Shown one piece after another: positions 2,303-34,263 of a stretch of DNA of 57,063 bases (position 1 is the stretch's first letter; every line of letters begins with the position of its first letter). Position numbers and translations under genes: made by a program. The notes beneath the pieces were generated by a model that saw only the letters and a list, made by a program, of their open reading frames with translations, made no database searches and was not told the DNA's origin. Source of the DNA: an uncultured virus (IMG/VR IMGVR_UViG_2061766007_002098) (Duplodnaviria > Heunggongvirae > Uroviricota > Caudoviricetes); IMG/VR virus record IMGVR_UViG_2061766007_002098; one strand, given 5' to 3'.

Positions 2303-2303
2303 A

Positions 2304-13024: not shown

Positions 13025-13259
13025 AGTAAGATTTTCCTTGGTTGAAAAAGTTTTCCCTTCACTATGTTATCGGAGTTCGCGTGCTGGACTTTTTTGTGTA
13101 AAGTAAATTTTTTATTGACAAAAAATGACACAAAATGTATATTGTGCAGTGAAGGGATAATATGGAAGNNNNNNNNNNCCATTGGTTGAAAATGTTTTTC
13201 CTTCACTATGTTATCGGAGTTCGCGTGCTGAACTTTTTTCGTGTAAAGTAAATTTTTTA

Positions 13260-13288
13260 TTGACAGAAAATGACACAAAATGTATATT
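13260..13288 (+). promoter_or_regulatory. sigma70-type promoter
   Basis: TTGACA-17 nt-TATATT upstream of ATG 13307; variant copy near 13115-13143. Confidence 0.65.
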
Positions 13289-13306
13289 GTGTAGTGAAGG
13301 GATAAT

Positions 13307-14125: not shown

Positions 14126-14147
14126 TAAAAAAAAGGAAAAGGATCTT

Positions 14148-14393
14148 ATGGCAACGAAGAAGAAAGCCGACAATGCCGGGAAGAAGGTGCCGAAGTCGAA
14201 GGTTGTCCGGTTCGATGTGATGGCGTTCGACAACGGGATGGAATTCCAGCTCCCCGTACCGGTGGAGATGAAGGTCGGAGACCTGAACTCGAACATCGTA
14301 TTGCAGGTGGCGCAGGTGCTAGTGAAGGAAATTAACCTCCTCGGGCACAAGTGCCTTTGGCGACGAACGCCGAAGGACATCCGCGGACGGTAG
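14148..14393 (+). CDS. hypothetical protein
   Basis: AAGGA RBS; the variant copy at 13462-13667 conserves the protein. Confidence 0.75.
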   Translation: MATKKKADNAGKKVPKSKVVRFDVMAFDNGMEFQLPVPVEMKVGDLNSNIVLQVAQVLVKEINLLGHKCLWRRTPKDIRGR

Positions 14394-14424: not shown

Positions 14425-15714
14425 ATGGCACTTGTAATAAGCGAAGAGACAAAGGCCAAGATACGGGCAAGCTTGTCCGCGACGAAGGCAAGACGGCAGA
14501 CCCAAGTATGCCGTGTCTTTGAACTCAAGGTTTCCATACGCCATAACCCGAAGGAAGTATTCCAGAAGTTAGCCAAATGCTTCAAGGAAGCGAAGTGGGT
14601 AATCAACGACATGCTGTCCTTATCCAAGGACAATCCCGACAACAGCATGTTCGATTACAAGTATACCGAACACAAGAATGTAGTCCACTACGACAAGGAT
14701 AAGAACTTAGTAACTTCGACAATTACCCTGCCGTCGGTTCTTCACCGAGCAACGGTAGCCCAGAAGAAGACGGATATAGTGAACTTGGCGAAAGCAAAGT
14801 CTCACGGGCGAAAGGTAGGTATGTTAAAGTTCAAGCGTCAAGTGGACTGCATACCCATTACCACGGGTTATACGCAGATTATTGATGGGTGCAGGATAAC
14901 CATTCCTGGATTCCGTAGACTCCGTGTTCACGGGTTAAACCAATTACAGCAGTTCGAACAATTTGAGCTAGCCGATGCCAGGCTTATCCGTAAGGCATCC
15001 GGTTACTATGTGAATATTAGCATTATGCTGCCGAAATCAACCAGGAAGCCTACCAACCGAGAGGTCGGTCTTGATTTCGGAATAAAGGATTCCATAACGA
15101 CATCCAATGGTGACAAGTACAACTGCAAAGTGCAAGAATCGGAGCACCTGAAGTACCTGAGCAAGATGCTCAACAGGCACAAGACCGAGAAGGGCTCTAA
15201 GCGGCGATGGAGATGTAAGTGTCAACTGGCGAGGGAATATGAACACTTGGCCAATGTCCGCAAGGATATAGCCAACAAGATATACCACAAGCTGGTGGCC
15301 GACTACGATGTTATCTATTTTCAAGACGAACAGATTAAGAACTGGCATAAGGGATTGTTCGGCAAGTCCGTACAGTCGTCTTGCCTGGGTACTTTGAAAC
15401 AGCGACTGACTGCATTGGAAGCAAGCGGTCGTAGTTTCAAGATTTCAAAGTGGGAACCCACTACCAAGCTGTGCCCGAAGTGTGGTTGCATCAACCATCC
15501 AACGCTTGCAGACAGAATCTACAAGTGCGATTGCGGATACGCTATGGATCGCGATACCCATTCTGCTCGTGTAGTCTTGATGATTGGCTCGTCAAAAAGA
15601 GCTGAGTGCGTGGAACACGCCTCCACTGAGATAGCCGCCTCTATGCCTATCGGCATGGCCGATAGTGTACACGTGGCTTCGTTGAAGCGAAAACTAGAAG
15701 CTCCCCGCCTTTAA
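14425..15714 (+). CDS. tnpB: TnpB RNA-guided endonuclease (IS200/IS605 family)
   Basis: RuvC-I VGLDFG, RuvC-II region YFQDEQ, Zn finger CPKC...CDC, RuvC-III DRDTHSA. Confidence 0.93.
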   Translation: MALVISEETKAKIRASLSATKARRQTQVCRVFELKVSIRHNPKEVFQKLAKCFKEAKWVINDMLSLSKDNPDNSMFDYKYTEHKNVVHYDKDKNLVTSTITLPSVLHRATVAQKKTDIVNLAKAKSHGRKVGMLKFKRQVDCIPITTGYTQIIDGCRITIPGFRRLRVHGLNQLQQFEQFELADARLIRKASGYYVNISIMLPKSTRKPTNREVGLDFGIKDSITTSNGDKYNCKVQESEHLKYLSKMLNRHKTEKGSKRRWRCKCQLAREYEHLANVRKDIANKIYHKLVADYDVIYFQDEQIKNWHKGLFGKSVQSSCLGTLKQRLTALEASGRSFKISKWEPTTKLCPKCGCINHPTLADRIYKCDCGYAMDRDTHSARVVLMIGSSKRAECVEHASTEIAASMPIGMADSVHVASLKRKLEAPRL

Positions 15715-15773: not shown

Positions 15774-15859
15774 GTCGGCGGGCGTGCCATTTCTCCGGCG
15801 CGTCCGCCGTTTCCGTTTTATTCATTGTGCGGAAACAGAACAGGCAGAGGACTTTTACC

Positions 15860-16630
15860 ATGGCAGAATGGAATTCAGCACCGGCAAGCAGCACGGCCAC
15901 GATATTCAGCGGCGACACCCCGCAGGCGAATGCCGCGCTTGTGAACGAATGGCTTGAAAAAGCCTACAAAGATGCAGTCGAAGAAGACAACTACAACTGG
16001 TATCTTCAAAATAGAGGTGTAATGCAGCCGGACGGTTCATATTTCGGAGCCGAACTCGTAAAGGCGCCTGAATTGAATTACGATCCGAATGTCCGTCAAG
16101 TAGGTCAGCCGATGCGAAATGTAGAAGCACGAGCCGATTATGACGAAAGGATGATGGACAACATCGGGGACCTTGTTTTGGGTTATGATCCACGCGAGAG
16201 TCAAGAAGGCTTCGGAGGCGAAGATGACGATTACAAGTCGGCTTTGTTCCTTGGAAGTTTTTCTCCTGGAAGGGCTGGACGTCTAGCAGGAGCCGTTTTC
16301 GGAGCGGATGTTGCCTACGATGTAGCTAAAGGTCGATATGTACCTGGTTTACTTGACATGATGTGGCTAGGTGGCATGGGTAAGAATGCCGCCAAGAAAG
16401 CAGCGAAAATGTACTACCAGGACAAGCTAACCCGTGCCGTTCGCAAGCGTTCGGCAAGGCAGGCGGCACGAAGGGCCGTTCCTCAACCGACAATCAGGAT
16501 GCAGGATGCCAGAACGGGGAAATGGAACGACATAAGCCCTTACATTGAAGTAGTTCCTTCCGAGGTCATTTCTACAGGTCCGTACAAGACGAATTTCCTT
16601 GACCGCATCAAGGAAGTCATGGAACGCTAA
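15860..16630 (+). CDS. putative virion cargo protein (LGYDP motif, C-terminal NFLDR)
   Basis: GAGG RBS and late motif upstream; similar to the 16730-17208 fragment. Confidence 0.65.
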   Translation: MAEWNSAPASSTATIFSGDTPQANAALVNEWLEKAYKDAVEEDNYNWYLQNRGVMQPDGSYFGAELVKAPELNYDPNVRQVGQPMRNVEARADYDERMMDNIGDLVLGYDPRESQEGFGGEDDDYKSALFLGSFSPGRAGRLAGAVFGADVAYDVAKGRYVPGLLDMMWLGGMGKNAAKKAAKMYYQDKLTRAVRKRSARQAARRAVPQPTIRMQDARTGKWNDISPYIEVVPSEVISTGPYKTNFLDRIKEVMER

Positions 16631-16729
16631 TCTTACAAGCTTCTTTATTCATAGTGCGACGGCATGCAAGTGCCGCCCTTTTTCCGTTTTTCCGGGAAAT
16701 GACGCCGCAGACGGGGCCGNNNNNNNNNN

Positions 16730-17208
16730 CTATTTCCGACGGCAACGAGGACGATTTCGAGCGCCTGCGCATCGAGCGCGACCTCGACCTGGAAAAGGAA
16801 CTGAAGGAACGCGAGCTCCGCCCGCACTCTCTCGAGGTCAAGGAACAGCCGTCGAAGCTGGAGGCGTTCTTCCTCGGCTACGATCCCGACGACGACGGCG
16901 AAGGCGAAGGTGTCAGCGTCGTGGACGCCGGTTACTTCGTCCCGGTCCTCGGTTCCGCCATGTACGGCAACAATATCCTCGACCAGGTGAGGCGCGGCGG
17001 AATGCCGGGCGCACTGGACGCAGCCATCGCGGTCCCGTTCTTCGGCCCGAGAATCAAGAGGGCTGGCAAGGCGTTCGTGAAGGGCTTCAAGGCCGGACGC
17101 GCACGCAGGTTCGCCGAAGGCCTGAAGGACAAGGACTACAGGACCCCTCTCGACTACGCCCGCACGCAGCTATTCGACAGGGAAGGAAAGCTGGTGGGCG
17201 AGTGGTAG
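16730..17208 (+). CDS. 5'-partial homolog or alternative allele of the 15860 gene
   Basis: FLGYDPDDDGEG; same downstream flank as the 15860 gene. Confidence 0.6.
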
Positions 17209-17334
17209 CCCGATAGATAAGCAATCGTTCTTTTATTCATAGGTGACGGCACTACTGTGCCGCCCTTTTTCCGTTTTTCCGGGAAATGACGCCGCAGACG
17301 GGGCCGCGACAAAATTCCCGTCGGGAGATATAGA

Positions 17335-17853
17335 ATGAATGCACTAGAATATGTCAGGAAGATTACACAGGACGGCTCGCGATGCCGTTTCCCTAGCGTA
17401 AAGTCCAAGGAAGTGAAGGTTATCGAGGGCTCGTCTCCGTTCCAGAAGTTCGAGACGAAACTTTACCGCACCGAGCCGGACGAGGACGCCGAAATCAAGC
17501 TGGAGAACACCCTGCTGGAACGCGTGACCGTCACGGCGCTAAATTCCACGACACCGCAGGCCTTCTACGACCACGTGTGCCTCATCCTGCCGAAGAAGGT
17601 GGGCAAGGTTACCATCGAGCGCGGCGAATACGACGAGGAGAAGTGGAAGCCGCTCCTACAGGAGCTCACCCTCGAGATTAGCAACGAGCTCGCGGCCCTC
17701 GCGTTCAAGGAACGCAACTTCAACGGCTCGCAGACCATCATCAAGATGCTACAGGCGCGCATCAAGTCGTGGCAGAAGGCGGTTGTGGCCGAGGTCGGAG
17801 CAGAGAAGGACGAGGACGACGGACACATCCAGCTCAACATCAACATAGTGTAG
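17335..17853 (+). CDS. putative terminase small subunit (phage B)
   Basis: Immediately upstream of TerL; C-terminal IQLNINIV strand. Confidence 0.6.
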   Translation: MNALEYVRKITQDGSRCRFPSVKSKEVKVIEGSSPFQKFETKLYRTEPDEDAEIKLENTLLERVTVTALNSTTPQAFYDHVCLILPKKVGKVTIERGEYDEEKWKPLLQELTLEISNELAALAFKERNFNGSQTIIKMLQARIKSWQKAVVAEVGAEKDEDDGHIQLNINIV

Positions 17854-17876
17854 CGCATGGCGGAGGCTGAATCCGC

Positions 17877-19341
17877 ATGCGGACAATCAACGTAGACATC
17901 AGGCCGGAACCATACCAGCGGTCCTTCTTCACGCAGAGGGAGCGCCTCTCGGGCATGTATTCCGGCCGTGGCGTGGGCAAGAGCTGGGTGATGCACAATA
18001 AGGCCTGCATCGCGCTTGCGAGCGGCGAGAACGTGCTATACCTCACGCCAACCAACTCCCTTCTCCGAAAGCAGATGATGCCGCGAATGCTCTCCACGCT
18101 CCGTTCGTGGGGGCTCACAGCAACCTGGAACAAGTCGGACGAGACCATTTCCGTGGACGGCTCCACCGGAATCCTTTGGGGAGCGTCCTACCGAAACTAC
18201 GACGACGTGTGCCGCGGTGCCGACGGCGTGTCCACCGTGTGCTACGACGAGCTCGCCAAGGCAGACGACCTGCCATTGCTCTTCGCCGCCGTGGNNNNNN
18301 NNNNNNNNNNNNNNNNNNNNNNNNNNNNNNNNNNNNNNNNNNNNCCGCATGGTGCTGAACAACGAGCTTGGCCGTGTCGTGACGGGCGCCACCATCGACG
18401 ACAACACCCACGTCACCGAGGCCGAGCGCGAGAACATGAAGCGCTTCCTGAAGGGCGACCTCTACCGCCAGGAAATCCAGGGGCAGATTCTCTCGGGCGA
18501 CATCGAGAGCGCAGTCTTCACCTCGGACTGCTTCGGGCGAATGTGGCAGCCGCCGAGGGGCTNNNNNNNNNNNNNNNNNNGCGCCGGACACGGCCGCGAC
18601 TACAACGTGTTCTACGTCATCGACGACGTGCACATCCTGGAGAAGGTCAAGATACAGAAGGCCGACTCCTTCGAGATGAACAACATCGCCCGCGGCCTCA
18701 TACAGAAGTACAACGTTCGCCAGGTGACCGTGGACGGCACGGGCGGCTACGGCCAGGCCATCTACGACTTCCTGAAGCTGGACCCTTCGCTACAGGTCTA
18801 CTTCACGAACTTCGGGCAGGCCGCGGAGGACCACGAGCACTTCGCCAACGCCCGAGCGGAGATGTTCTTCCGTCTCGCCGAGGCGATGAAGCTGGAATTC
18901 CGTCTCGACGACGCGGAAACCGAGGAGGAACTGCGCATAATCAGTTCGGACGTGAACGTGTCGGGCAAGTGCCTGCTGGTGAGCAAGGATGTCATCAAGA
19001 AGGTGCTCCANNNNNNNNNNTTCACGAACTTCGGTCAGGCCGCGGAGGACCACGAGCACTTCGCCAACGCCAGGGCCGAGATGTTCTTCCGTCTGGCCGA
19101 GGCGATGAAGCTGGAGTTCCGTCTCGACGACGCGGAGACCGAGGAGGAGCTGCGCATCATCAGTTCCGACGTGAACGTTTCGGGCAAGTGCCTGCTGGTG
19201 AGCAAGGATGTCATCAAGAAGGTGCTCCAGCGCTCCCCGGACAGCTCTGACGCGCTCGCACTGGCCTACTACAACAGGCGCAAGATGTCCACGCTCGACG
19301 TGGCCGTGAACAGCATGTACAAGAAGATGCGGATGTTCTAG
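17877..19341 (+). CDS. terL: terminase large subunit (phage B; gapped, partly duplicated)
   Basis: SGRGVGKS Walker A, VCYDELA Walker B, ATIDDN, VDGTGG, SPDSSDALAL. Confidence 0.92.
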
Positions 19342-19482
19342 GGAGTTTTTTTTCGCGTTGCGAAAGGAAATTTTGCTAAAAACGCGTTTTTTTGCGGTGA
19401 TTGAACTGGAAATTGCCGATTTTGGGCGAATTTTCTTTCGCGGTGCGAAAATTTTATTCATCGTGAAAAAGAGAGGTTTTAT

Positions 19483-19713
19483 ATGCCGGTAAGCGCAAGG
19501 CTACAGCAGATTTCGCCGCTGACCACATCGACGGCTGACATAGTGAACGCGTTGCAGGGGCTGTGGGGCCGTTCTGCGGACAACGGTAGCGACACGACCT
19601 GGTGCGTATTGGGCCGTGTAGTGTTCGTGCAGGGCGACACGCAGAAATGCCCCGTGAAGGTGATTGCGTGGAACAGCTGCGACGGCGGCGGTAGCTGGGG
19701 CATAGTCAAGTAG
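19483..19713 (+). CDS. small hypothetical late protein
   Basis: GAGAGG RBS; late motif at 19453. Confidence 0.6.
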   Translation: MPVSARLQQISPLTTSTADIVNALQGLWGRSADNGSDTTWCVLGRVVFVQGDTQKCPVKVIAWNSCDGGGSWGIVK

Positions 19714-19764
19714 GGGAGCCGTTTTATTCATTCCGTGGAATCAACATCTTTCACGGGATTTTTT

Positions 19765-20070
19765 ATGGCAGAACGCAGCAACTTGCTTGACAGGATGGTC
19801 GTGACCGCCGATGGCAACGAAACGAGCGGAACGAACGGACTCGGTACCGAGGGGACCCTTCTGGACAGATTCCTTGCGTGGCGAAGGGACAACGAGTCTG
19901 CCCGCAGGGCACGCCAGGCGGAGGACGCCCTTGAGGCTTTAGACGAAATCAGGAAAAGGAACAGTGCCTACCCGACGGAGAAACGGTCCAAGATGATAAG
20001 GGACCTCGAAAAGAGGTTCCGAGAGGCAGGAATACTGCGCGACGGCGAAGGGACTGAAGGGAGGCGCTAA
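19765..20070 (+). CDS. small NLLDR-tagged protein
   Basis: MAERSNLLDR... and internal TLLDR; late motif at 19723. Confidence 0.65.
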   Translation: MAERSNLLDRMVVTADGNETSGTNGLGTEGTLLDRFLAWRRDNESARRARQAEDALEALDEIRKRNSAYPTEKRSKMIRDLEKRFREAGILRDGEGTEGRR

Positions 20071-20072
20071 TC

Positions 20073-21640
20073 ATGACAGATCGGAAGAACTTTTTGGACC
20101 GCGAGAAGGAAAAACGGGACGGCGAGAGCTACCTTCCGTACTCGATAGCGCTCATACCGGGCCTTACCGCACTGGAACAGGACGCACTCGTGAAGGACAT
20201 CGCAGAGGGGCTCGTGAAAAGTCGTCGTGCAAGCGACAGTATCGGACCAAGAGAAGTAAACTCCATATTTGATGCCGTCGAAGATAGAAAGAATGCTGAT
20301 TTTCTTGAAAATTCAATACAGAGAATACCTGAACCTATAAGAGACGCTTGGTTGACATCAGTGTTGCAAGATGATGTAAATCCCTATTTCATGAATGAAG
20401 AGGGGAAAGCCTTTTATAAACCTACATCAGGCGAAGTGTTTTTAGACAAGCATCTTTTTGACAGAAGACCGAATGTTGCTATACATGAGTATGCTCACAA
20501 GACTAATCATGACCTTAATTTAAGCCACCCGTATTACAAGGGTATGGATAGGGTTGTTGTCCCGGACCGTATGATTGGGATAGGTCTTGGAAGTTTGATT
20601 AGTGATGAACTTCCGAAAGGATTTATGCCTAGTGGCAGTACGATGCCTTATAATAGAGTCGATTTTTCCACTCAAGCGGCAAGATTTTATGATGAAGATA
20701 AGGATAAGGCCCGTAAATTTGTAAAAGATTTTCTCTTCGAGACAAATTTGTCAAGACCCCTGGAAAATGATTTAATTGATAAGGGCAATGGTATAAAAAA
20801 ATCGATTGATTTTGTATCTCGTAGAGACGAATTTTTGAGCGATATAATGTCTTTAGACCCTTCGTTTGAAACTCCATATAGTGACTTTAGAGTGGGAGAT
20901 GTTACAGGAATTGCGCATAATTCTTCTTATGCCGACGAACATTCCGCATTAGCAAGGCTTCAAGAGAAGAAACTCAAAGAATTAGGAGCTGGTTATAGAG
21001 ACTTTATTTCGACAAATCCTGAATATGCGGCAATGTCTACCGAAGGTGGAGCTGAACTTGTAGACCTTATGTCTACAGAAGGCGGACAGGAATACGTCAA
21101 AGAGCATTTTCCAATTGCGTACAAAAAAATGATACGAGAGTACGAAAATGACCCTAGAAGAGAACTTCCTAGAAGGAATGTTGCCGCATGGAATTTTTAC
21201 TCTCACGAAAGTCCTAACAATGTCTACAAGTACCGTGGAGAGCCGATACCGTATAACAAGGAAGAAGTGAGACGATATACAAGAGTCCCAGACCCTTACG
21301 GAGGCTGGTACTACGGTGACGATTATCACGATGTAAGAAAGAATGCCTTGCGACAAAAGAAGAACTATGTGGAATACCGTGACCTTGATGGGAAATGGAA
21401 GCGNNNNNNNNNNTCCGAAGGAAACGTTGAGACCTTGGCAAATGTACTCGCATGAAAGCCAAGACAATGTCTACAAGTACCGCGGAGAACCTGTTCCGTA
21501 CAATAAAGACGAAGTAAGGCGTTATACACGNNNNNNNNNNCTTCTACCCGGAAGAACTTAAACACGTAGACGCTAAACTTACAACGACGAAAGATTTCGC
21601 AAAAATGCTTGGTAAGAAACTCTTGAAGGGAGCGAAGTAG
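20073..21640 (+). CDS. zincin metallopeptidase-like protein with NFLDR tag (gapped 3' end)
   Basis: AIHEYAH (HExxH); YAAMSTEGGAE...EHFPIAY; probable true end ...MLGKKLLKGAK* at 21640. Confidence 0.7.
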
Positions 21641-21843
21641 CCCCGTCCTTTATTCATAGGGCGTACAACCAAGAATTTAACACAGGAGTATAAAATGACC
21701 GAAGAACTCGCACAGCTTCTCGAAGACCTCNNNNNNNNNNNNNNNNNNNNNNNNNNNNNNNNNNNNNNNNNNNNNNNNNNNNNNNNNNNNNNNNNNNNNN
21801 NNNNNNNNNNNNNNNNNNNNNNNNNNNNGGGAAGGCTAGGCCT

Positions 21844-22104
21844 ATGGGCGACACCTTCCTTGACCGTATTGCGAAGGGTATTGGCCGCGGAGGCTTCGAC
21901 AGTGGCCGAAACGTGTCCGTGCGCGCCGCGAAGCTGGTGATGCCCGACGGCAAGTCGGTGACGAACGTGGAAATCGTCGGCAAGGGCAACACCCTCGACA
22001 GAATGAAGTCAATCTTGAAGAACGGCAGGGGCCTTGATTCAGTCAAGGACCTTTTCGAGCACCCGAACGCCCGCAGGGGCCGCAGGAAGGGTGCGGAGGA
22101 ATAA
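21844..22104 (+). CDS. small TFLDR-tagged protein
   Basis: MGDTFLDR...NTLDR; follows a TAG stop. Confidence 0.6.
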   Translation: MGDTFLDRIAKGIGRGGFDSGRNVSVRAAKLVMPDGKSVTNVEIVGKGNTLDRMKSILKNGRGLDSVKDLFEHPNARRGRRKGAEE

Positions 22105-22109
22105 GACTT

Positions 22110-22878
22110 ATGGCAAGACAGAACGAGAACTTTCTTGACCGCGTGATGCGCTACGGCGGAGCGAACAGACGCGCGCAATACATCCCGCAAGGACAGCGCG
22201 GGTTCGTGCCTACGGGACGCATCCCGCAGGGATACGGCCATCCGCGACGTGTCCAGCCGCAAATCCAGCCGCAACCGCAGCCGGTGCAGCGCCAGTACAC
22301 GCCCGAAGAAATCTACGCGTACCGCATGGAGCAGGCGAAGCGCGAATACGCGCAGCGCGCCTACGAGGCCGAGATGCAGCGACGCGCCGCATACGGAGTC
22401 CCGCAGGTTGGCGATGGAGCGGCAGCGCGTCCCTACGAGTTCCTGATGGGCGAGGCCGACCGACTCGGCGCAAGCTCCGGCGCAANNNNNNNNNNCATAC
22501 CGCATGGAGCAGGCGAAGCGCGAATACGAACAGCGCGCCTACGAGGCAGAGATGCAGCGCCGTGCCGCATACGGCGTCCCGCAGGTGGGCGAGGGTGCAG
22601 CAGCACGTCCCTACGAGTTCCTCNNNNNNNNNNAGGCCCAGCTCCGAATCCGCCTGATGTACAATGACTACACACGCGAATCCATTGAACGCGGCGCACA
22701 GCCCGCCAGCTTCGAGGAGTTCGTGCAGGCCCTCGTGGCACGTTCCAAGGCGCAGCAACAGCAGGCCGCTGAACCGCAAGCCGTGCAACAGCCGGAAGCG
22801 CAGCCCGCGGAAGTTCCGCAGGTAGCCGCGGNNNNNNNNNNNNNNNNNNNNNNNNNNNNNNNNNNCCCGACGGCATAG
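22110..22878 (+). CDS. Gln/Pro/Ala-rich NFLDR-tagged protein (gapped)
   Basis: GGAGGA RBS; MARQNENFLDR. Confidence 0.6.
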
Positions 22879-22907
22879 AATTTCCTTTGTTTCCTTGGGT
22901 TGATTGA

Positions 22908-22951
22908 AAAAACGGGAGCCGGGGCTAACCACGCCCCGGTTTCTCGTTTTT
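22908..22951 (+). terminator. intrinsic terminator overlapping the late motif
   Basis: AAAAACGGGAGCCGGGGC-loop-GCCCCGGTTTCTCGTTTTT. Confidence 0.8.
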
Positions 22952-22965
22952 ATTCATAGTGCGAT

Positions 22966-25011
22966 ATGGCAAACAAGAAACTCACTCCGCTAGAAATTTT
23001 GTACAGGGAATTCAAGAACGCGAAGACGGACGCCGCGCGCAACGACGCATGGCGCCGCTTCGAAATCAAGCGCGGCGAGATGTACCCTCCGCGCAGTGAC
23101 CGCAAGTCTGCGATGCTCCGGGACAGCGCAGCCGTGGCCGCGAAGTATCCGACAAAGGTGCTGGGCGGCGAGAATCACCGCTACTACGAACCTGGGCGAA
23201 GAATCCGAATGACCGTTGACGAGACCGCCCGCCGTTCCCCGGATGTATGGGTAGACCCCGAGAGCGGTGAACGATATGTCCGCGCATTTCACTACACGCA
23301 GCCGGAAAACATCGAGAATATCCTCAAGACTGGGCTCGCAGCAAGACTCGGACCAGACGCGAAGAATTTCCAGAACAGGGCTGGCGTATGGACCAGCATG
23401 GGTGAAGCGAATCCTATGGGTTACGATTACGTGAACGGAGCTAGTATCGACGAGAAAGGCTATTCTATGGAACCTCTCGAAATTCGCATTCCGGAAGAGG
23501 AGTGGAAGTCTATGCCCGTTGACCATACCGGAATTACTGGAAAAGATCAGGTGATGGTATTCCGTCCGTCAAAGGCGAAACCGTACGGAACCGTGGACAT
23601 CGGCGTCGAAAAGGCTCCAGTGGTAATTCCGCCAGAGTTTATATCGAGATATGAGTTCCCGAAGGATTGGGAAACGAATCTTGGAGAAAACAAGAGCTTG
23701 AGAGGATGGCTACCGAACAAGCCTAAAGTTTATGTGTCAGATCGTGGATTCTACGACAAAATACCAAAAAATATTGTAGAAGATGCAAAGAAAGAATTGG
23801 GTGAAGGTGCGTCTTATAACGAAATAAATCAATGGGTTATTGACAATAGACAAGATTTGCTAAAGAATGACGTAACATCGAAGAACTACAATTTTGTGGC
23901 GGATTTTGATCGTACCAGACTTGACGAATCAAAAAAATACTTTGACGAGCACAAACGCGTGGCCGAATTGTCTCCAGAAGCGAACAAGTCTTATTTCAAC
24001 TCTGTAGATTTCAATACACCTTATGATTTTCAATTTTCGCTAGACAAAATGCCTTCTCAACGTATAGGGTATGTACAAAAGGGCTATCCTCATAGAAGTA
24101 ATGCTTTCAGTGCCTTCTATTATGACGATGAGGCCCCAAGGACTAAAAAATTCATACGAGACAATGCAGGAGACCGTACTCCGATAAGCGAATTTGCTAG
24201 ATGGTTTGAAATAGACAAGAATGCTAAACCGATGCTTGAGAAGGCTAGTGGCTATGGCGTAGGCGTCCCTCATGACGCATTAGGTATTTATTCTGTCGAT
24301 TATTTGGATGATGCCGGTGTTAGAAAATTCGACGGAAGGCCTACTTTTGAAAACGATAACTACGCAAGAAAGAATTTTAAAGGGTATGGAGAACCTAGAT
24401 ATAGCCGTAGTCAATTAAAAGGTGAAATAAAACGTTGGAACTCTTGGCTATATAACCAGGCTTACCAAAACGATGCTGGATACAATAAGGTTGTTGAAAA
24501 CTTTTTGAACTCCGAAAACAAAGATGATGCAGAAAGAGCTATGGAGGAAGTATTAAAGTATAAAAAGAAACTTTTGACTCCTGAAAGGAAAAAGGAACGC
24601 CAAAAAGATATTTTGAAAAAGAATGAACAAAGAATTACCCCTTGGGATCAGCCTTCTCAAATTGCAAAACAGAATTCTTGGTATGACGCGTTGCATTCTA
24701 ACGAATATAGTGAAGCAATGTCTAAAGAAGTTGACAAGTATCTTGAACAGCATCCAGAACTTGATTTTGACAAAGATTACGAAAAGGCTTATAAAATTGT
24801 TCGTAAAAATATTGGCGAAAATGTGGCTCAATCAATAGCCGATAAATTTTATCCTGAAAATTTGCAAAAGGTCCGAGAACAACTTGTGGAAGATTGGAAA
24901 AAGCAGTTTACGCAAGATTCGCTCAACCGCGTCTACGGACACGAGCTTGGTCGCAAGATAGGCAAGTACCGTGCAAGCCGAGGAAAGCCCGTGAACCCAA
25001 AGCAACTCTAG
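22966..25011 (+). CDS. large protein with an ADP-ribosyltransferase-like domain
   Basis: AFHYTQPENIENILKTGL...GVWTS...LEIRIP...IPPEFI matches the H-type ART strand order; AT-rich C-terminal two-thirds. Confidence 0.7.
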   Translation: MANKKLTPLEILYREFKNAKTDAARNDAWRRFEIKRGEMYPPRSDRKSAMLRDSAAVAAKYPTKVLGGENHRYYEPGRRIRMTVDETARRSPDVWVDPESGERYVRAFHYTQPENIENILKTGLAARLGPDAKNFQNRAGVWTSMGEANPMGYDYVNGASIDEKGYSMEPLEIRIPEEEWKSMPVDHTGITGKDQVMVFRPSKAKPYGTVDIGVEKAPVVIPPEFISRYEFPKDWETNLGENKSLRGWLPNKPKVYVSDRGFYDKIPKNIVEDAKKELGEGASYNEINQWVIDNRQDLLKNDVTSKNYNFVADFDRTRLDESKKYFDEHKRVAELSPEANKSYFNSVDFNTPYDFQFSLDKMPSQRIGYVQKGYPHRSNAFSAFYYDDEAPRTKKFIRDNAGDRTPISEFARWFEIDKNAKPMLEKASGYGVGVPHDALGIYSVDYLDDAGVRKFDGRPTFENDNYARKNFKGYGEPRYSRSQLKGEIKRWNSWLYNQAYQNDAGYNKVVENFLNSENKDDAERAMEEVLKYKKKLLTPERKKERQKDILKKNEQRITPWDQPSQIAKQNSWYDALHSNEYSEAMSKEVDKYLEQHPELDFDKDYEKAYKIVRKNIGENVAQSIADKFYPENLQKVREQLVEDWKKQFTQDSLNRVYGHELGRKIGKYRASRGKPVNPKQL

Positions 25012-25033
25012 CGTTTCTCTCATCACGAACCCA

Positions 25034-25060
25034 AAGGCCCCTTTTCGGGGGCCTTCTTTT
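25034..25060 (+). terminator. intrinsic terminator overlapping the late motif
   Basis: AAGGCCCC-TTTTC-GGGGGCCTT followed by CTTTT. Confidence 0.8.
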
Positions 25061-25141
25061 ATTCATACCACGGAAGGCCGAGAACGAGCCTTTACTCACA
25101 ACTTCAACGCAGCGCGTGGCGTACACGCGAGGAGATAGGTA

Positions 25142-26561
25142 ATGCCTAACGAAGCAATGAATCCGAACATGGACATTGATTACATCCTGGCGTCCTACAA
25201 GGACGACGAGCCCGAAACGCAGACGGAACCCGGTGCATCCGAACCGGCTCCCGAAACGCAGACGGCTACGGCAGGTGACGGGGGCCACCCGGAACAGGCC
25301 GCAGGAGCTGAACCCGCAAAACAGGAACCCGCGAAAGCAGATGGGCCGCAGAATGACGCGAACGCCCCGGCGGGACAACAGGCAGCGGGCGCCGAGCCGG
25401 ACAAGAAGAACGACGGCGAAGGCGGTGTGGCTGGCCCCGAAGGCAACGCAGGCGCGGCGTCGGAACCCGCGAAGGCGAAACCCAAGGTGCCGCGCAGGAA
25501 TCCCCTCTCTCGACTCGAGAAGGCCGAGTATTCCACACGAAAGTGGAAACAGAAGTACCGCGAGATGCGCGAGAAGCGCGACGCGTTGCAGGCCGAGCTC
25601 GACAAGTACAGCAGGATAGACCCTACGCAGTTTAGCGACCCCGCAGCAAGGGAGCGCTTCATATCCTGGCAGGCACGTACCGAGCAGAAGCTCAACGGCA
25701 TGGACGAGGACCTTGAAGACATCGCTAGACAGACTTACGAACGCGAGTACGAATCCAAGGTGGAGGCATTCTACCCGGACGAGGANNNNNNNNNNACTCG
25801 ACAAGTACAGCAGGATCGACCCTACGCAGTTTCGCGACCCCGCAGACAGGGAGCGCTTCCTAGCCTGGCAGGCACGTACCGAGCAGAAGCTCAACGGCAT
25901 GGACGAGGACCTGGAAGACATCGCGAACAGACAGTACGAACGCGAGTACGAATCCAAGGTGGAGGCATTCTACCCGGACGAGGACGCGCGTCACGCATTC
26001 GACGCACTTGACGAACACTACGGAACCGTACTGGACGCCACGTGCCAACGATACGACCCGGACAACATCATCCTGGACTACTTGCAGAATTCCCCCTACG
26101 AGCCGGTGATGCGAAACATCATCTACAAGAACGGCCCGTTGCAGGAAGAACTCTTCCAGCAGTTCGGAAGCAGGCAGATCGCGAACGCCACGCGCGTCCA
26201 GATTCTGCGCCAGCTCGAAAGCCAGGTGAAGGCGTATTACGCGAGGGAACAGGGCGCACAGCCCGAACAGCAGGCGGCACCGCGCACGGCACAGAACGGC
26301 GCGGCCACGCAGCAGAGACGGTTCACGCTCCCCCCGAAGAAGGACGCCCCCGCAGCAGCTCCCGCTCCGGCACCCGCCGCGACGCAGCAGCCCGCGGCAC
26401 CTGCACAGGCCCCGACGCCAGCACCCGCACCCGCTCCGGTAACGGCACAGCCGCCCATGAGCAGCGGAGTGACAGGCTCTCTCACCCGAGGAAACGAAGG
26501 TGGCGGTACGCCCGACGAGAGCGCGGAAGCGAACGCCCTGTTCAAGAAGATGTTCGGGTAA
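25142..26561 (+). CDS. capsid scaffolding protein (duplicated segment at gap)
   Basis: Acidic/Pro-Ala-rich, coiled coil, directly upstream of the capsid gene. Confidence 0.7.
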
Positions 26562-26612
26562 TTACAAACCCACACTTCAAGTGCCGCCACCGCGCGGCCA
26601 AAGGACAACATC

Positions 26613-28019
26613 ATGGCAAATTCCACCGTTCAGAACAAGAAGGTGATTTCCCTCGCCCTCGGCGCAGTCGCCGACGGCGCTTACCTCTATGCTGGAGCCG
26701 ACCGCGCCATTGCCGCTGAAATGCAGGGCAAGGACAACGGCGACATCATCTACTACAAGACCACCAATCTCGGCCAGGCCGAAATCTCCGACGTGTCCAT
26801 GGGCGTCACTCCCAACAGTGGCCTCGCAAACCTCGACATCGCGTCCGCAACCCCGGTCAAGCACCGCCAGGTTCCGGTGAAGATCAAGGACGCCCGCGTG
26901 ATGTACAACGTGAAGGCAATCGAAAAGCAGATTACCTCCCTCGGCAAGGACCTCGCCATGGGCAAGATCGGCCAGAAGCTCGCCAAGAAGGCCGTCAAGA
27001 ACGTCATCGGCGAAGACATCCTGACCATCGGCAACATCTTCGTCGGCAGCGACTTCGCCGTCTTCCAGAAGGCCGGTGCGTTCCTCAAGTCCTTCGTGGA
27101 CGGCACCCTCTACGGCTTCATGGACTGGAACGTATGGGGCGACCTGACCGCCAAGGGCCAGCAGGCCGTGCCGTGCGCACTCGCCGAACCGCGCTTCGGC
27201 CGCAACCTCCGCGGTTCCTGGTCACTCATCGACCAGCTCCGCACCATCCCGGACATCCCGCAGTTCACCATCGGTGACGTGGCTTCCGCCAAGGTGAAGG
27301 CATCCGTCGCCACCTCCGCGACCACGGCCACCATNNNNNNNNNNCCTTATCGACCAGCTCCGTACCATCCCGGACATCCCGCAGTTCACCATCGGTGACG
27401 TGGCATCCGCCAAGGTGAAGGCATCCGTCGCCACCTCCGCGACCACGGCCACCATCAACATCACGGCAGGCTCTAGCGCCCTCGCCGTCGGCGACAAGGT
27501 CGTGCTCGCCGTTCCGGGCATCAACGCCCTCGACGTGAACGACAACGACACCGGCGTAGCCAACAGCTTCGTCGTGACCCTCGCATCCTCCGTAGCCGCC
27601 GCTGGCACGCTCGACGTGACCGTGACCTGGGACCTCGACCTCGTCGTGATTCCGGCNNNNNNNNNNAATCCTCCGTCGCCGCCGCCGGAACGCTCGACGT
27701 GACCGTGACCTGGGACCTCGACCTCGTCGTGATTCCGGCTACAGTCGCCGCCAACGCCGCCGTGACCGTCAAGGGCACCGCTGGCACCTACGGCGCGACC
27801 ATCATCCGTGCGGAAGGCGCACAGGCCTTCGGTACGATGAACCAGTGCGACTGCGAAGGCGCCAAGTACGAAAAGAGCTCCATCGACGGCCTGACCGTGC
27901 ACGCCAACTCCGGCGAGAACATCGGCGCCCTGTCCACCGACAGCCGCTACGACATGATCCTCGCCTCCAAGCTGGTCGAACCGCGCGCAGCAGCCCTCGT
28001 GCTCTACAAGATCGCCTAA
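26613..28019 (+). CDS. major capsid protein, P22 coat-like (gapped)
   Basis: Highly biased codons; GKDNGDIIYYK; beta-rich insertion; SRYDMILASKLVEP end; followed by a terminator. Confidence 0.8.
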
Positions 28020-28068
28020 CCACGGCGAAACAAGGAATTCTAGGTTGGCATAACCTATTATCCCCAAA

Positions 28069-28102
28069 AAAGGCCCCGTCACCTAACCGTGGCGGGGTCT
28101 TT
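28069..28102. terminator. terminator after the capsid gene (likely bidirectional)
   Basis: AAAGGCCCCGTCAC...GTGGCGGGGTCTTT; the variant near 28398 has a compensatory G-C to A-T pair. Confidence 0.8.
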
Positions 28103-28463
28103 GTCGTTATATTGGTCGGCAAGAATGATTCCGGCTACTTCTTCTTGGCGGGGGAGTCCTGCGTAAGGTACTCNNNNNNNNNNTCATATTGGTCGGCAAA
28201 ATTGTGTCGGTTTACTTGCTTGCGGACTTGACGTATTCTTCGAGCAGGTAGCGCAGGAAAGGGCCTGTCTTACCGGCCGTGCTTATAGGCACGCCCCTTT
28301 TCACTGCGACACGNNNNNNNNNNGGCCCTCGTGCTCTACAAGATCTCCTAACCACGGCGAAACAAGGAATTCTAGGTTGGCATAACCTATTATCCCAAAA
28401 GGCCCCACCACTTAATTGTGATGGGGTCTTTGTCGTTATATTGGTCGGCAAAAATGATTCCGG

Positions 28464-28637
28464 CTACTTCTTCTTGGCGGGGGAGTCCTGCGTAAGGTAC
28501 TCCTCGAGCAGGTAGCGGATGAACGGCCCTGTCTTACCGGCCGTGCTTATAGGCACGCCCCTTTTCACTGCGACACGCTTTGCCATGTCGAGAATCCGTC
28601 CGTCCATCGAAACGCAGAATTTGGTGTTGTCGCTCAT
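28464..28637 (-). CDS. ribbon-helix-helix-like DNA-binding protein
   Basis: MSDNTKFCVSMDGRILDMAKRVAVKRG...FIRYLLEEY; AGGAGG RBS. Confidence 0.6.
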   Translation of the reverse strand: MSDNTKFCVSMDGRILDMAKRVAVKRGVPISTAGKTGPFIRYLLEEYLTQDSPAKKK

Positions 28638-28774
28638 TGCGTACCTCCTATACGAGTCCGAACCATACGGTCTCTACCGGCTTCTCGTTGTCAGGGTTCG
28701 GGGCCCTGTTGCCTATGACCTTGAATATGGCCTTGATTGTACCGTCGATGGTGTCGNNNNNNNNNNTGTACCTC

Positions 28775-29098
28775 CTAGACGTATCCGAACCAAACGGTTT
28801 CGATTGGCTTTTCGTTGTCCGGGTTCGGGGCCTTGTTGCCTATGACCTTGAATATGGCCTTGATTGTACCGTCGATGGTGTCGGCCTTTCCGCACTCGTC
28901 GTAGGCGGTGCGGAGCTGTTCCGTCGTGGCTCCCATGATGAGGTCCTTCGCCCTCGCCAGGAAGCAGCCCCTGATGGCTGTCTTCCTGTAGGCCGGAAGG
29001 CATACGACGCCGTTGAGTTCAAGGCCCATCACGACGCCGTTGAGGTAGCCTACGACCTCGACGGCATGTTCCAGGACCTGTTCTTTCGTGAATTCCAT
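28775..29098 (-). CDS. hypothetical protein
   Basis: AAGGGGATA RBS; variant copy of the 3' end at ~28648-28756. Confidence 0.6.
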   Translation of the reverse strand: MEFTKEQVLEHAVEVVGYLNGVVMGLELNGVVCLPAYRKTAIRGCFLARAKDLIMGATTEQLRTAYDECGKADTIDGTIKAIFKVIGNKAPNPDNEKPIETVWFGYV

Positions 29099-29231
29099 GA
29101 TTTTATCCCCTTTTGACGTTCTGTATATACAATATATATTTTATATACGCCAAAGGCAAGCGGTTTTTCGGCAAAAGGCGACGGTTTTATTCATAGTGCG
29201 GATAAAACTACGGAAAAAGAGGATTTTCAGC

Positions 29232-31778
29232 ATGGCAGCTACAAACTTGCTCGACAGACTGGCAGAGGAATACGAGGGAAACCACCCGGTAGAATACCGC
29301 GCGCAACTGGCGAAGCTGGGTAAATCCATCGGTAACAGGGTCTACTCGCTAGGCGGCGGTGCGAAGGGCGTAAGCGCACGCGACATCATTCGCAAAGACA
29401 TCAAGGGCAACGATGTAGGCGTCTATCCGTTCGACGTTCTCGAAAAACAGAGGAACAACAAGCGCAAAGACGAGAGCATGCCGTGGGACTACGCCATACA
29501 GGGCAAGGACGGAGGTGTGCTTCTCGAATCGTTCAACGGCGGCACGAAGGCTGACGCGAACGAATACGTGGCTCAACTGAAGAAAAAGGGAATTGTCCCG
29601 AAGGACGCGAAACTCGTAAGCAACGTGAGTTCCAGCCGACAGACGGCGAAGCAGAAGCGCAACCTNNNNNNNNNNTCTTGCAAACGGAACTGTAAGGGAA
29701 AAGCAGAATCTCATCAACACTGGCAATATGGGCCCGCAGCTCTATCATGTAGATTCTTGGGACAAGTGGCTTTCCGCCAAGAAAGCCGCGAAGGAGGCCG
29801 GACAGAACCTCGGCCGCCTATTTGCCGAACAGAACCAGCGTGAGAAGAACGTGTACGGCAACATCTCGAAGGGATTGAAACCCTCGACTTCGCCCGTCCC
29901 CGAAGGCCGCTACAAGTACGCCCTCGGCAACCAGAACCACGTGTATTCGACAAGCCCTGATGAACCGCAGAACGACTGGATGTCGTTGAAGCCGAGTTAT
30001 GACGGTCAAACTGCATTGACTAATTCCGGCCACGAGATTCACTGGCGTAAGGACGGCACACCTATTATCGACGCCTACACTTGGANNNNNNNNNNCCGAT
30101 TCACTGGCGTAAGGACGGCACACCTATTATCGACGCCTACACTTGGACGCAGATTCCGAATATCGAGAAAATAAAGAAAACCGGCTACCTCGCCACTGAA
30201 GGTTCCGACACTAAAAAATATCATCCTGGAACTGAAGGACAGTGGACTGCCGAGGTAGACAACTACCCGATGGATAAAAACTACGACAACCATGTTGAAG
30301 TTTTCAAAAAAGGTAAGAACGGAGAAACTTTCAACGAGGAACTTTTGCACTCAAGGCTTCCGTTGAACTGGTTTCAAAAACAGCCTATCACGCATCAAGG
30401 CCCTAGAGGATGGAACGTGAAGGTCGATGTAATTCATGCAAAGCCAGGTTCTCCAGAAGTTTTCTGGGGCGAAGGGAAAAATCGCCGTTCTGCGCAGGTC
30501 GCCACACCGGCTCAATTTATCAACCACATTCCAGAAGACAAGATGCGCCCTGACTGGGCTCCTGTGTGGAAAAAGAATATGCTTCCAGGATCGCATCCGA
30601 ATAAGGAGGATTTAGGCGGAACTGAAGAATTTATATTCGGCATGACAGGCCGAGACCCTTCTGGAACTTCTGTAGAAGAGCAAAAGAAAGCAGCATCCAT
30701 GATGGCGAATAAGGATAGCTACGCTCTTCAGTACGCTCTTCGTAATGTAGACAAGTCGGACAAGACCGAGTTGCAGCGGAATGCGGATAATGCTTTCCTT
30801 GAAGATTATGTTTCACGTACAAGCGGAAACAGGACTCCGTATGACCTTGCGTGGCAAACAAAAAATGTTCCGCAGCAGGGAGAAGGTATGATTGACCGAG
30901 GAAACGACACTTCGTTAAGTCAATGGAATGGCGTTGAACTTCCGCGTACAAACGCATTTACATTTCAAACGTACCTAGATTCGAAAAAATTGTCCGATTT
31001 TCTTCCGCTAGATTCCTACGAAAGGCTTCTTAACAATTTCTACCTCAATAAGTTTGCTGGTAAATATGGACTCCCAGCTAACTCTTTGAGTATGATACGA
31101 AACCTCATTCCTAGTCCAAAGAAAGCGGAAGTCTTATACAAGGACTATCTTGATAAGATAGGAATGAAAAATTTTTCCGAAATAAAAAAGGAAAGAGATA
31201 GTTTTCCAGGTCGTTCTTTTTTTGAATCTCCTGTCACGTCTGAAACGCTAAACCGCGGTTCTAGAAGAGGATTCTACAAGGAAGAACTTAAAGACTTGAA
31301 ACAGAATCGTTCTTACGATGCTGCACGAAGAGGAACTTTTGACGATTGGAATTTTGTCTATAAAAATGTTGCAAGCAATAACAAATTCAATAAATTGCAA
31401 AATTTCAGTTTTGACGATTGGTTCGATAACTACATGCGTAACGACAATTTTTACAAAGACTATTTCCAAGAAGGCGTTATAAATCAACCTTCTGTGCAGC
31501 AGGCTATCGCTGAAGAAAAAGAACGTGTAAGGCCTTATGTAGAAAAATATCTTGAAAATATGAAAAATTTGCCGACAGACAAGCAACTTGAGAAAAAGGC
31601 TTACGAACGGACAAAGAAAAAATTTGATCATGGTCTTACGCGCGAAGAGGAACTTGAGTTTTTGAAAAGTCGTCAACCATACCAAATGAAGGCCGACTCC
31701 CTCGACAAGGTGATAGGCCACACGATAGGCCGCCGCATCGGTGCCGACCGCGCCAAACGCGGAAAGAAAATCTTCTAG
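29232..31778 (+). CDS. large NLLDR-tagged protein with an ART-like domain (gapped; paralog of 22966)
   Basis: MAATNLLDR; AYTWTQIPNIEKIKKTGY...GQWTAE...TPAQFI; C-terminal DSLDKVIGHTIGRRIG. Continuity across the 29666 gap is inferred. Confidence 0.6.
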
Positions 31779-31875: not shown

Positions 31876-33709
31876 ATGGAAGGTATTTTACAGGCCAACG
31901 GAAACAACGGCTTCGCTCCGATGCCGGAAGAAGACGAAGACATCATCAAGAAATGCAGGGACTTCCTGAAACGCGCAAGCGACAGGTGGTGTTCCGACAT
32001 CGACGACCAGGAACTCGCGCTGGAAGTCGCCGGGGGTAATTTCTGGGGCGTAGGCGAGAACAAGAAACGCTGGGCCATCCTCGACAAAGAAGGCAAAGAC
32101 CTCATCCCGACCATTCCCTACAACAACATCTCGCCGCAGGTGAACGCAATCGCGTCGCCGTTCTCGCGTTCGCCCTTCCACGTGAACCTCGTGGACCGTA
32201 CGGAAGAGAATGGCGGCAAGGTCATTCAGGAGGCCATATCCAGGATCGAGAGTTCCAACAACGCGAAGAACGTGTACCAGCGGGCCTTCACGCGTGGCGT
32301 CACTTGCGCCGCCGGTTACGTGGTCGTAGGCACAAGCCTCGCCGACGGCAAGGTGGTCCCCAGCATCGAGTTCATCGCCGACCAGAAGCAGGTGGCCATC
32401 GACCCCGACTGCATCGACCCCTCGGGCTGCGACGCGGAGGAAGGCGCCATCATCAGCTACATATCCGTCACGAAGGCAAAGCGCGAGTACGGCGAAGACA
32501 TCGTCCCGATGGACTACCCGTCGGGACAGCCGCAGATGTCGTTCGTCGGCATAAAGGCGTGGCAGGACAAGACCGACAAGGTGCAGCTCGTCCGCTACTT
32601 CCGCAAGGTAACGAAGGAATTTCCTGCGCCGGACGCACAGCCCGGAATGCCACCGAAGACGGTAAAGAGGACTTTCGTCCGCATGCACACGATTTGCGGC
32701 GAGCGCGAGGTGCGCAACCCTGTGGACCTCATGACCGACATCATCCCGATAGTCCGTTTCGCGGGCTACACGGACTACAGCTCCGAATACGGCCAGGTCT
32801 ACGTCGGCTACGTGCAGAAGATGATGCCGCAGATCGAGCAGATGAGCGTGGCGCTCACCATGCAGGCGCTCCGCATGCGCCGATGTTCGAACGTCCGCGG
32901 CGTGGTCGGCAAGTCGGCCACGGAAGGCTGCGAAGAATACTTCACGGACTTCGAGAAGGGCTCCGCGATGTGGCTCACCTGGAACGACAAGGCTGGCGCA
33001 CAGCAGCCCCAGCTCGTCAACGACAGCTTCAACACGGCGGACATTTCCGCCGCGCTCCAGGAAGGCCGCCAGACCATGCAGGAATGCTCAGGCGTGAACC
33101 TCTCCGGCCTCGACACCACGCAGCGCACGGCCTACGAGATAATGCAGCAACAGATTAACTCGGAATCCAACGTGCAGGAACTCTACCTGCATGCGGAAGC
33201 CGCCTGTCACGCGCTCGGACGCATCATGCTCGGAATCCTCAACAACGGCGAAGTTCCGCAGTTCACTCTCGAGGGCGGTCCGTCCGTCATTACCGCGAAA
33301 ATGAAAATCCGCTCCGAGATCCAGGCGATAGCCGAGATGGCGGACCCTGCCCACAAGGAACTGTGCGCCATCCGTCTGGCCGAGACAATCGACAGCGACG
33401 TGGCGAAGAACATCGCGCAGGACCTGAAGGCGAACACGGAACTGAAGCTCACGGAAGGCCAGGACATCGGCACGATGATGAATGTCGCCGAGAAGCTGAA
33501 GGCACAGCTCGACGAGGCGATGGAGAAGCTGGACCAGGTGCAGGCCGAGAACAAGGAACTCGAACGCCGCAACTACGAGCTCGAGCTGGCACAGCAGAAC
33601 ATGAAGAGCCAGCAGGACATACAGAACATCCAGTTCCAGCAGCAGATGAAGCTACGCGAGGCGGAACTCGCCGCGAAGAACGTGACCGCCGCAGCGAAGA
33701 TAGCGGCCG
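31876..33709 (+). CDS. P22-like portal protein (3' end in gap)
   Basis: IPYNNISPQVNAI, IDPDC...DAEEG, IPIVRFAG, EGGPSVIT, C-terminal coiled-coil barrel. Confidence 0.88.
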
Positions 33710-33856: not shown

Positions 33857-34263
33857 TCAGGACAACGACTGGCAAGCATAACGTGTACGAGGCCGACCTT
33901 CAGCACAAGAAAAAGAACCCCGACGGGACTTTCGTCTACGTGGAAGAAACCCGCCCGATTTTCACCAGCAGGAGACGCGGCGAATGGGATATGGGGCCGG
34001 AAACGAAGACCCTTGTGCTCGAAATTCCCGAAAGCGTCTACAAGGGCATGAAACGGACCGACCTGAATCCCGACTATGCTCCCGGCGTGCAGAAGCGCGG
34101 ACTCGGTTTGCCCGAAAAGGTCTACTCGGTGGACCGTGGCGGCAGTGCAGATTTCTTCATGGAAGACCTGCCGCTTGATTACGCCGTGGGCGGCTACATC
34201 GGGAAATCGCGAAAGATGGTCCCGCTGGATTCGTTGCGGCACCTTCTCGAACTTGACAAGTAA
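33857..34263 (+). CDS. 5'-partial ART-like protein
   Basis: PIFTS...LVLEIP...EDLPLDYAV parallels the ART strands of 22966. Confidence 0.45.

Follow-up and report, generated by a model that had tools for sequence, protein, structure and literature searches.

The window analysed here is a stretch of 57,063 nucleotides from an uncultured tailed virus (IMG/VR record IMGVR_UViG_2061766007_002098). Its head block, in which the genes for terminase, scaffold, coat and portal are found, also encodes several dissimilar proteins that start with nearly the same few residues. In an earlier note on this DNA, the pentapeptide [NT]-[FL]-L-D-R was proposed to be a terminal tag by which cargo is loaded into the virion. 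The tag is a motif at the protein level, it marks only optional genes of the head block, and it lies outside the fold of the payload that it precedes. The features of the block are given below; scaffold, small terminase and three ejection genes were assigned by position and anatomy only.

15816..15825, plus strand: late-promoter-like TTTTATTCAT, which opens the head block; more copies at 17231, 19452, 19722, 22948, 25057, 29185, 31824 and 34341
15860..16630, plus strand: semi-conserved pre-terminase gene; this allele has a C-terminal NFLDR (16592-16606); second allele past an N gap (16730-17208)
17335..19341, plus strand: small terminase (inferred from its position) and large terminase (phrog_2); untagged core genes
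19765..20070, plus strand: tagged gene of 101 amino acids (aa) bearing the tag twice (19780-19794, 19855-19869); removable cassette that has a promoter motif of its own
20073..21640, plus strand: tagged metallopeptidase-like gene with HExxH and a distal Glu; tag at 20088-20102, HEYAH at 20484-20498; interrupted by N gaps
21695..21730, plus strand: start of a conserved core gene for an acidic helical protein of 56-63 aa (the rest in an N gap)
21844..22104, plus strand: tagged 86-aa gene; tag at 21853-21867, second copy NTLDR at 21988-22002; homologs in L014 and G002
22110..22878, plus strand: tagged Q/P/R-rich gene, pieces across N gaps; tag at 22128-22142; 227-238 aa in relatives
22966..25011, plus strand: 681-aa gene with an ADP-ribosyltransferase (ART)-like domain and a likely degenerate tag, TPLEIL (22984-23001)
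25142..26561, plus strand: putative scaffolding protein, untagged; candidate receptor
26613..28019, plus strand: P22/Sf6/CUS-3-type coat in overlapping pieces, untagged; by structure model and Foldseek
29232..31778, plus strand: single tagged gene of ~850 aa, split in three; its ART-like domain is diverged; tag at 29244-29258
31876..33709, plus strand: P22-like portal, end in an N gap, untagged; PF16510, E 5e-28
33857..34263, plus strand: ART-fold gene directly 3' of the portal; its start (tagged in relatives) falls within a 147-N gap

Tag occurrences and the state of the window

Across all six reading frames, the window has seven matches to [NT][FL]LDR; every one is on the plus strand, between 16592 and 29258. 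Five of them lie at most 7 residues from the start of a protein (19780, 20088, 21853, 22128, 29244), one is internal (19855) and one is C-terminal (16592). Triplet-block shuffles give an expectation of 0.28 (maximum 2 in 100), and in the 77 called proteins 6 matches are observed where protein shuffles give 0.05. The tags that the earlier note had read in the genes at 19765, 20073, 21844, 22110 and 29232 are thus where it placed them, as are the internal TLLDR and NTLDR copies and the HEYAH sequence. The C-terminal NFLDR of the 15860 gene is also present; it is specific to this allele, and the alleles of G001, G002 and L014 have other ends. In the L017 homolog of this gene, the tag is N-terminal. 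The alleles of the pre-terminase family (window 15860-17208) differ over half their length, and a paired hydrophobic segment of the type D-x(4)-[IV]-P-x-x-G presumably resembles pre-toxin TG domains.

Two tagged genes were probably missed at first, namely the one at 22966 and the post-portal gene at 33857-34263. TPLEIL in the former is likely a degenerate tag, because Pro or Ala also occurs before L-D (TPLD or NPLD in the ART relatives). By its position, the small acidic gene is a candidate adaptor. In 7 of the 7 contigs that have this gene (window 21695-21730; L014:7319-7489), the next gene is tagged or tag-like.

The late motif reported earlier, TTTTATTCAT, occurs in 12 copies, all on the plus strand (expected 0.08), and precedes most late units; it is a putative late promoter. 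Just 5' of the late block lies a 221-aa gene (window 13179-14125; L001:1369-2034) with a sigma-factor-like N-terminal match (phrog_351, E 2e-8), a candidate activator of this motif. A gene that by eye is IS200/IS605 TnpB-like (14425-15714) stands immediately 5' of the first late motif and is absent there in L001 and L014.

The window is a scaffold in which overlapping strain variants have been joined via N runs. Between 13 and 37 kb it contains 12 duplicated piece pairs, and pieces 3' of N gaps often re-read the preceding piece with 79-100% identity. Because the scaffold is such a gap-ridden strain mix, the ends of its open reading frames (ORFs) are unreliable: the ORFs at 29232, 29728 and 30081 are a single gene of ~850 aa (homolog L012:5483-8065, 861 aa), ORF 20073 extends to 21640, and the 15860 gene is followed downstream by a second allele of itself. 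That the tags share one molecule follows from L014 and G002, which are free of N and each hold five tagged genes of the same families.

Enrichment and anatomy of the tag

For the comparison with relatives, a codon model was used to call genes in 13 contigs or loci (G001-G006, L007, L012-L014, L016, L017 and L020). Identical proteins were counted once, and G007, loci repeating the same contigs and three fragments below 3 kb (L015, L019, L021) were excluded. The strict pattern [NT][FL]LDR, fixed beforehand, is carried by 13 of 86 accessory head-block genes and by 0 of 386 other genes (p 1e-10; by family 4/42 vs 0/190, p 1e-3). The wider pattern [NT][FLIMV]LD, which was picked only after the relatives had been seen, starts at most 12 residues from the start in 43 of the 86 accessory genes. 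None of the 111 core genes (head, tail, ejection) has it, and 2 of the remaining 275 do. Counted by family, 21 of 42 accessory ones are tagged vs 2 of 190 others (p 3e-16), and shuffled N-termini give a mean of 0.22 and a maximum of 3 where 43 are observed. The enrichment at protein termini that a tag would entail is found with either pattern. The phages concerned have coats that are merely 44-57% identical. In the 7 contigs counted, each holds 4-10 tagged genes, with a total of 850-2,700 residues of tagged protein per phage.

A family-weighted logo was drawn from 45 sites in 22 families, with the Asp demanded by the search pattern. A basic, proline-rich leader of 1-12 residues is followed by Thr (0.56) or Asn (0.38; together 0.94), by Ile, Leu, Met or Phe, by Leu (0.99) and by the Asp. 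After the Asp come Lys, Arg or Glu and two mainly hydrophobic positions; beyond +6 the information is low. In the L-D-R core described earlier, L-D is indeed near-fixed, while the residue after the Asp varies (K, R, E, N, D). The near clade has F-L-D-R, and the distant ones have I-L-D-K or M-L-D-E. As the tag idea supposed, the motif is kept in homologs at about 25-32% mean identity: in A3, the alignment of the peptidases, the Asp never varies, and in A10, that of the ARTs, the Leu never does. The tags draw on five codons for Leu and on both for Asp, near late-gene usage; because the codons vary, the constraint acts on the peptide. A DNA or RNA element in place of a peptide was rejected, as synonymous codons are mixed. 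In the model of the post-portal protein, the tag forms a short helix (residues 7-10) after a disordered start and before the fold.

The tag looks uncleaved, since no S78/S49 protease was found in the 5 records searched and no motif follows the tag. The prohead protease families PF04586 and PF01343 matched in 0 of these 5 records with positive controls. No shared cleavage motif was found: no gapped residue pair is enriched in +6..+40 across the 22 families (P 0.59). In the search with PF03420 (S77) the control matched nowhere. No prohead protease was recognised among 85 G001 proteins in PHROGs, a scan that also missed the coat, and a diverged protease may be present.

From relative to relative, the slots between the core genes are filled with different genes. 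In contigs from 4 of 4 runs (4 studies), 19715-20069 is skipped, which is the entire 19765 gene with its promoter motif. The slot 3' of the portal is occupied by a tagged gene in G001, G002, G006, L013, L007 and L012. Here the first 19-20 bases are identical between two different ART families, so that recombination inside the tag does sometimes swap payloads; across families, DNA is shared by only 3 pairs among 54 5' ends. The GC content of the tagged genes is below that of the core genes in 7 of 7 contigs. Cys makes up 0.2% of the tagged proteins, vs 1.76% of other genes, 1.13% of core and 0% of the putative ejection proteins, and a membrane-like hydrophobic segment was found in 0 of 51 tagged proteins. 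In the middle clade, the portal is flanked by an untagged family that has a conserved start of its own, K-A-L-Y-E-A-A-L-R-R-K-G, and that occupies slots which are tagged elsewhere (L005:12022-12666, 14692-15333; L017:1962-2672, 13513-14172; L016:4587-5282).

Payloads and source phage

Two payloads had been described as enzyme-like, an HExxH peptidase and an ART-like protein, and both types are encountered among the tagged families. In the HExxH family, H138, E139, H142 and E324 are invariant in A3 (an HExxH helix and a distal conserved Glu), no Pfam peptidase family scored over its cut-off, and the profile gave no match to Protein Data Bank (PDB) sequences. The profile search returned 44 representatives, and the tag core is present in 24 of the 26 close relatives and in none of the 18 distant ones; the 26 include the query's own members, and the profile itself contains the tag. 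In four of the 18 distant relatives, the peptidase forms the C-terminal part of a protein that exceeds the cut-off for MuF (PF04233), a head-associated domain. An hhalign comparison of the window-type peptidase with MuF-fused ones gave 98% for one (220 columns) and 97% for a second (104 columns). PF04233 itself is found in 0 of 5 virus records (2 rated complete; control positive in 5 of 14 genomes), and a MuF domain (PF04233/PF06152) has no match in the window's tagged proteins nor in 69 accessory proteins. To judge from these alignments, the tag stands where MuF sits in the peptidases of other phages.

The post-portal family was modelled with a pLDDT of 84, and its listed VIA structural matches are almost all ART-fold proteins. 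The best of them has a Z of 7.5 (rmsd 4.1, 106 aligned), and every Z is below 8. Profile matches to KptA and DarT are weak; KptA, scabin and DarT are among the top structural rows. The genes at 22966 and 29232 carry ART-related domains, with Trp at the family's His position in the 29232 subfamily, and the L012 homolog of 29232 matches the A10 ART profile with E 3e-5. Another tagged family matches positions 1346-1457 of the 1879-position phrog_13543 and, on our reading of its motifs, may be a second ART-like family. G004 has a tagged Dam methylase (PF02086, E 6e-13). Most remaining tagged families have no family name, and for none of the window's tagged proteins did Pfam, PHROGs or NCBIfam give a name over cut-off. 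Atlas matches serve as leads only (DarT/PARP cluster, 0.92; Phage_min_cap2, 14% at 0.87; Peptidase_M90, 0.86). The two long ART-like genes (22966-25011 and 30096-31778) have in common a C-terminal tail of ~33 residues, G-H-x-[IL]-G-R-[RK]-I-G with a basic end, that is 48% identical in the L012 homologs. It is possibly a second signal or a DNA-binding tail.

The window holds a temperate P22-like podophage of the cattle rumen, with Fibrobacter as its probable host. The complete relative G001 has an integrase (phrog_1) and a head-closure gene. A close relative sits in a contig of a Fibrobacter metagenome-assembled genome, its coat 94% identical to the L001 query coat; one distant relative carries a Fib_succ_major gene, and another was binned with Bacteroidales. 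The sequencing runs that contain the stretch are mostly bovine gut metagenomes (the best holder is a possible source sample), and no RNA dataset is among the listed holders. The coat model is poor (pLDDT 50), and its 10 best Foldseek rows are the CUS-3, Sf6 and P22 capsids. The putative scaffold at 25142 has no family match. Relatives of coat and portal are absent from 50,697 GenBank phage records, and wider viral scans did not find a further, more distant clade. Literature searches, which covered few subscription journals, listed no paper on the motif or the phage group.

Pieces of other phages are joined in the same scaffold at 340-3678 and 45923-57063, and there is no tag there. A second large terminase (phrog_2; 1010-2302) is accompanied by portal-like fragments. 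By eye, the right end has an apparent lambda-type set of terminase, portal, protease and capsid, and contractile-tail pieces. Among the relatives, G001 has a diversity-generating retroelement (Avd and reverse transcriptase) among its tail-fibre genes (L030:14620-16445), and in G004 ~15 small opposite-strand genes are inserted between nozzle-like and putative ejection genes (L041; 19963-24842).

Proposed function and known systems

We consider it probable (roughly 0.7) that the tag is a short helix that docks accessory proteins on a part of the P22-type procapsid, by which they are loaded into the head for injection. The Asn or Thr would cap a two-turn amphipathic helix (hydrophobic-L-D-x-hydrophobic-hydrophobic) after the basic, proline-containing leader, and this helix would bind a single conserved site on some component of the head while it is being assembled. 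The accessory proteins addressed to the procapsid in this way would form a changing set. The cargo would be trapped on scaffold exit, unclipped, and would enter the cell after the ejection proteins, where the ART, peptidase and methylase domains would act in host takeover or counter-defence. The tag would then take the role that falls to a MuF domain or to a polyvalent-protein fusion in other phages. Indirect support for loading comes from the MuF-type payload with the tag in MuF's place, from the Cys depletion like that of ejection proteins and from the tagged Dam methylase.

The partner of the tag is by analogy most likely the scaffold, for which our estimate is 45%, with 20% for the portal, 15% for the coat and 20% for a small conserved acidic or 80-aa protein. 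Scaffold mimicry, i.e. a tag-like N-terminal helix in the scaffold (L023, L005, L017), was considered and is unsupported, as the best listed scaffold column scores 0.6 vs a tag minimum of 9.8.

Besides the late choice of the wider pattern, several points weigh against loading. If made late, a Dam methylase or a DNA-directed ART could work on progeny DNA without being packaged. The tag is absent from half of the accessory genes (43/86) and also from the three putative ejection proteins, whose packaging is obligatory, and the post-portal slot is empty or untagged in G003, G004, G005, L014 and L017. A loosened pattern also matches TerS, scaffold and the acidic gene, and N/T-x-x-D is a common helix cap. 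The MuF fusions are just 4 of 44 matches, and distant ones (E 1e-14 to 1e-4). Lastly, among 4,867 core columns the best mean score is 4.4 (in the pre-terminase gene), below the lowest tag score of 9.8; because no core column reaches that score, mimicry gives no pointer to the partner.

Of the other explanations, docking within the infected cell fares best, and even this one is unlikely. The tag would bring late enzymes to a partner such as the packaging motor, the outer portal face, a phage chaperone or a host protein, and they would act there, e.g. by modifying progeny DNA, or be kept inactive, with no injection. A shared binding motif accounts equally well for the enrichment and the conservation, and the Dam methylase and the folds like those of DNA- or RNA-acting ARTs (KptA, scabin, DarT) could work before packaging. 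However, the same peptidase rides on MuF elsewhere, the Cys depletion is like that of the putative ejection proteins and unlike that of cytoplasmic early proteins, and one motor-side job is hard to fit to 22 tagged families with unlike payloads.

Less probable still is that the motif has no addressing role and is a generic helix cap at the N-terminus, a stability element or a degron in late proteins of low complexity. The modelled helix at residues 7-10 after a disordered start would suit such an element, and 27 of 276 other genes have a loose hydrophobic-L-[DE] among their first 18 aa. The near-fixed L-D is far narrower, and the defined motif is absent from all 111 core late genes and present in 2 of 275 others, with shuffles far below the 43 observed (mean 0.22, max 3).

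It is just as improbable that the tag serves to fix decoration proteins to the outer surface of the capsid. A coat-binding helix would yield the same gene pattern, and the coat fold is P22-type with a surface insertion domain. The NAD-, zinc- and SAM-dependent payloads, however, require cytoplasmic substrates, and no adhesin or glycanase family is found among the 69 accessory proteins, bar one weak glycosyl hydrolase match below cut-off.

The weakest alternative, a relic of cassette exchange in which new genes recombine into an old 5' end and inherit its first codons with the peptide unselected, fits the precise gain and loss of cassettes and the 3 cross-family pairs among 54 5' ends that share DNA (e.g. 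19-20 bases in the post-portal slot, with different payloads), but hardly the remaining cross-family pairs without detectable shared DNA, the mixed synonymous codons, or a leader that varies over 1-12 residues while L-D persists at 44-57% coat identity. Cassette exchange probably explains the spread of some tags, not their persistence.

A bolder extension can be proposed, to which we give slightly less than even odds. A P22-type lineage may have shrunk its loading module to an uncleaved helix of ~8 residues that replaces MuF, so that any gene gaining it becomes cargo and a custom set of 4-10 effectors is injected alongside the ejection proteins from a protease-free head. If true, P22-like capsids would have a loading code that is both general and portable.

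The published systems are compared here through excerpts of the cited papers. The idea of a shared address peptide is not new in kind; such peptides are proven for T4 and P1, both with prohead proteases, while the choice of internal proteins by P22-type heads is known only gene by gene. The present tag spans more than 20 unrelated families. It could flag, from sequence alone, the counter-defence genes of an unstudied group of phages of rumen fibre degraders, and it could provide a short loading signal for engineered capsids.

In P22, incorporation of the ejection proteins gp7, gp16 and gp20 needs the scaffold and not the portal (PMC8402733, PMC12005531), and in the authors' model gp7 and gp20 are recruited via their N-terminal parts (PMC8402733). 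The head type is the same as here, and scaffold-dependent recruitment may be shared. Each of these proteins, however, has its own site, and a shared tag is not described in the excerpts (PMC8402733, PMC12005531). Since the putative ejection counterparts in the present phages are untagged, the tag would mark a second, optional class of cargo. In P1, an N-terminal packaging signal of 9-30 residues brings the anti-restriction protein DarB into the head (PMC9024508). The position of the signal is alike, whereas P1, as the excerpt describes it, is a myophage with a prohead protease that packages this single cargo through a stepwise pathway of Dar helpers.

Zincin-like metallopeptidase (MPTase), ART and adenine methylase are hub domains of the polyvalent proteins, which are injected (PMC5512222). 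The same domains are encountered here in separate small tagged genes, vs one large fusion in the polyvalent proteins excerpted. In the MuF toxins (SPP1 gp7 family), muf genes adjoin the portal gene, gp7 binds the portal, and the toxins include peptidases and ARTs (PMC5576092). Temperate phages, genes by the portal and interchangeable metallopeptidase or ART payloads are common to both systems, and four MuF proteins have a C-terminal domain that is homologous to the window peptidase. In contrast, a short peptide is found here and no MuF domain, with 4-10 tagged genes per phage vs typically one in the MuF account. Immunity genes were not recognised here, although no search was aimed at them.

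The T4 internal proteins, cited as the precedent from the outset, are addressed by a capsid targeting sequence (CTS) of ~10 residues that also directs foreign proteins into the head and is cut off by gp21 (PMC9026906, PMC3012670, PMC9958956). The addressing logic of this precedent holds: in IPI-III, the N-terminal peptide likewise sits on divergent, strain-variable proteins, and T4 also packages an ADP-ribosyltransferase, Alt (same sources). The removal by a protease does not carry over. The T4 propeptide is cut after L/I-x-E in the accounts excerpted; here no S78/S49 protease and no shared cleavage motif are found. Furthermore, portal and coat are P22-type rather than a gp20-gp23 head module, the tagged proteins reach 860 aa and are scattered between the head genes, and their loading is predicted. 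The tag, if it loads cargo as proposed, works like a capsid targeting sequence, and it belongs neither to the T4 system, from which head type and missing cut site set it apart, nor to the MuF toxins, whose MuF domain it lacks.

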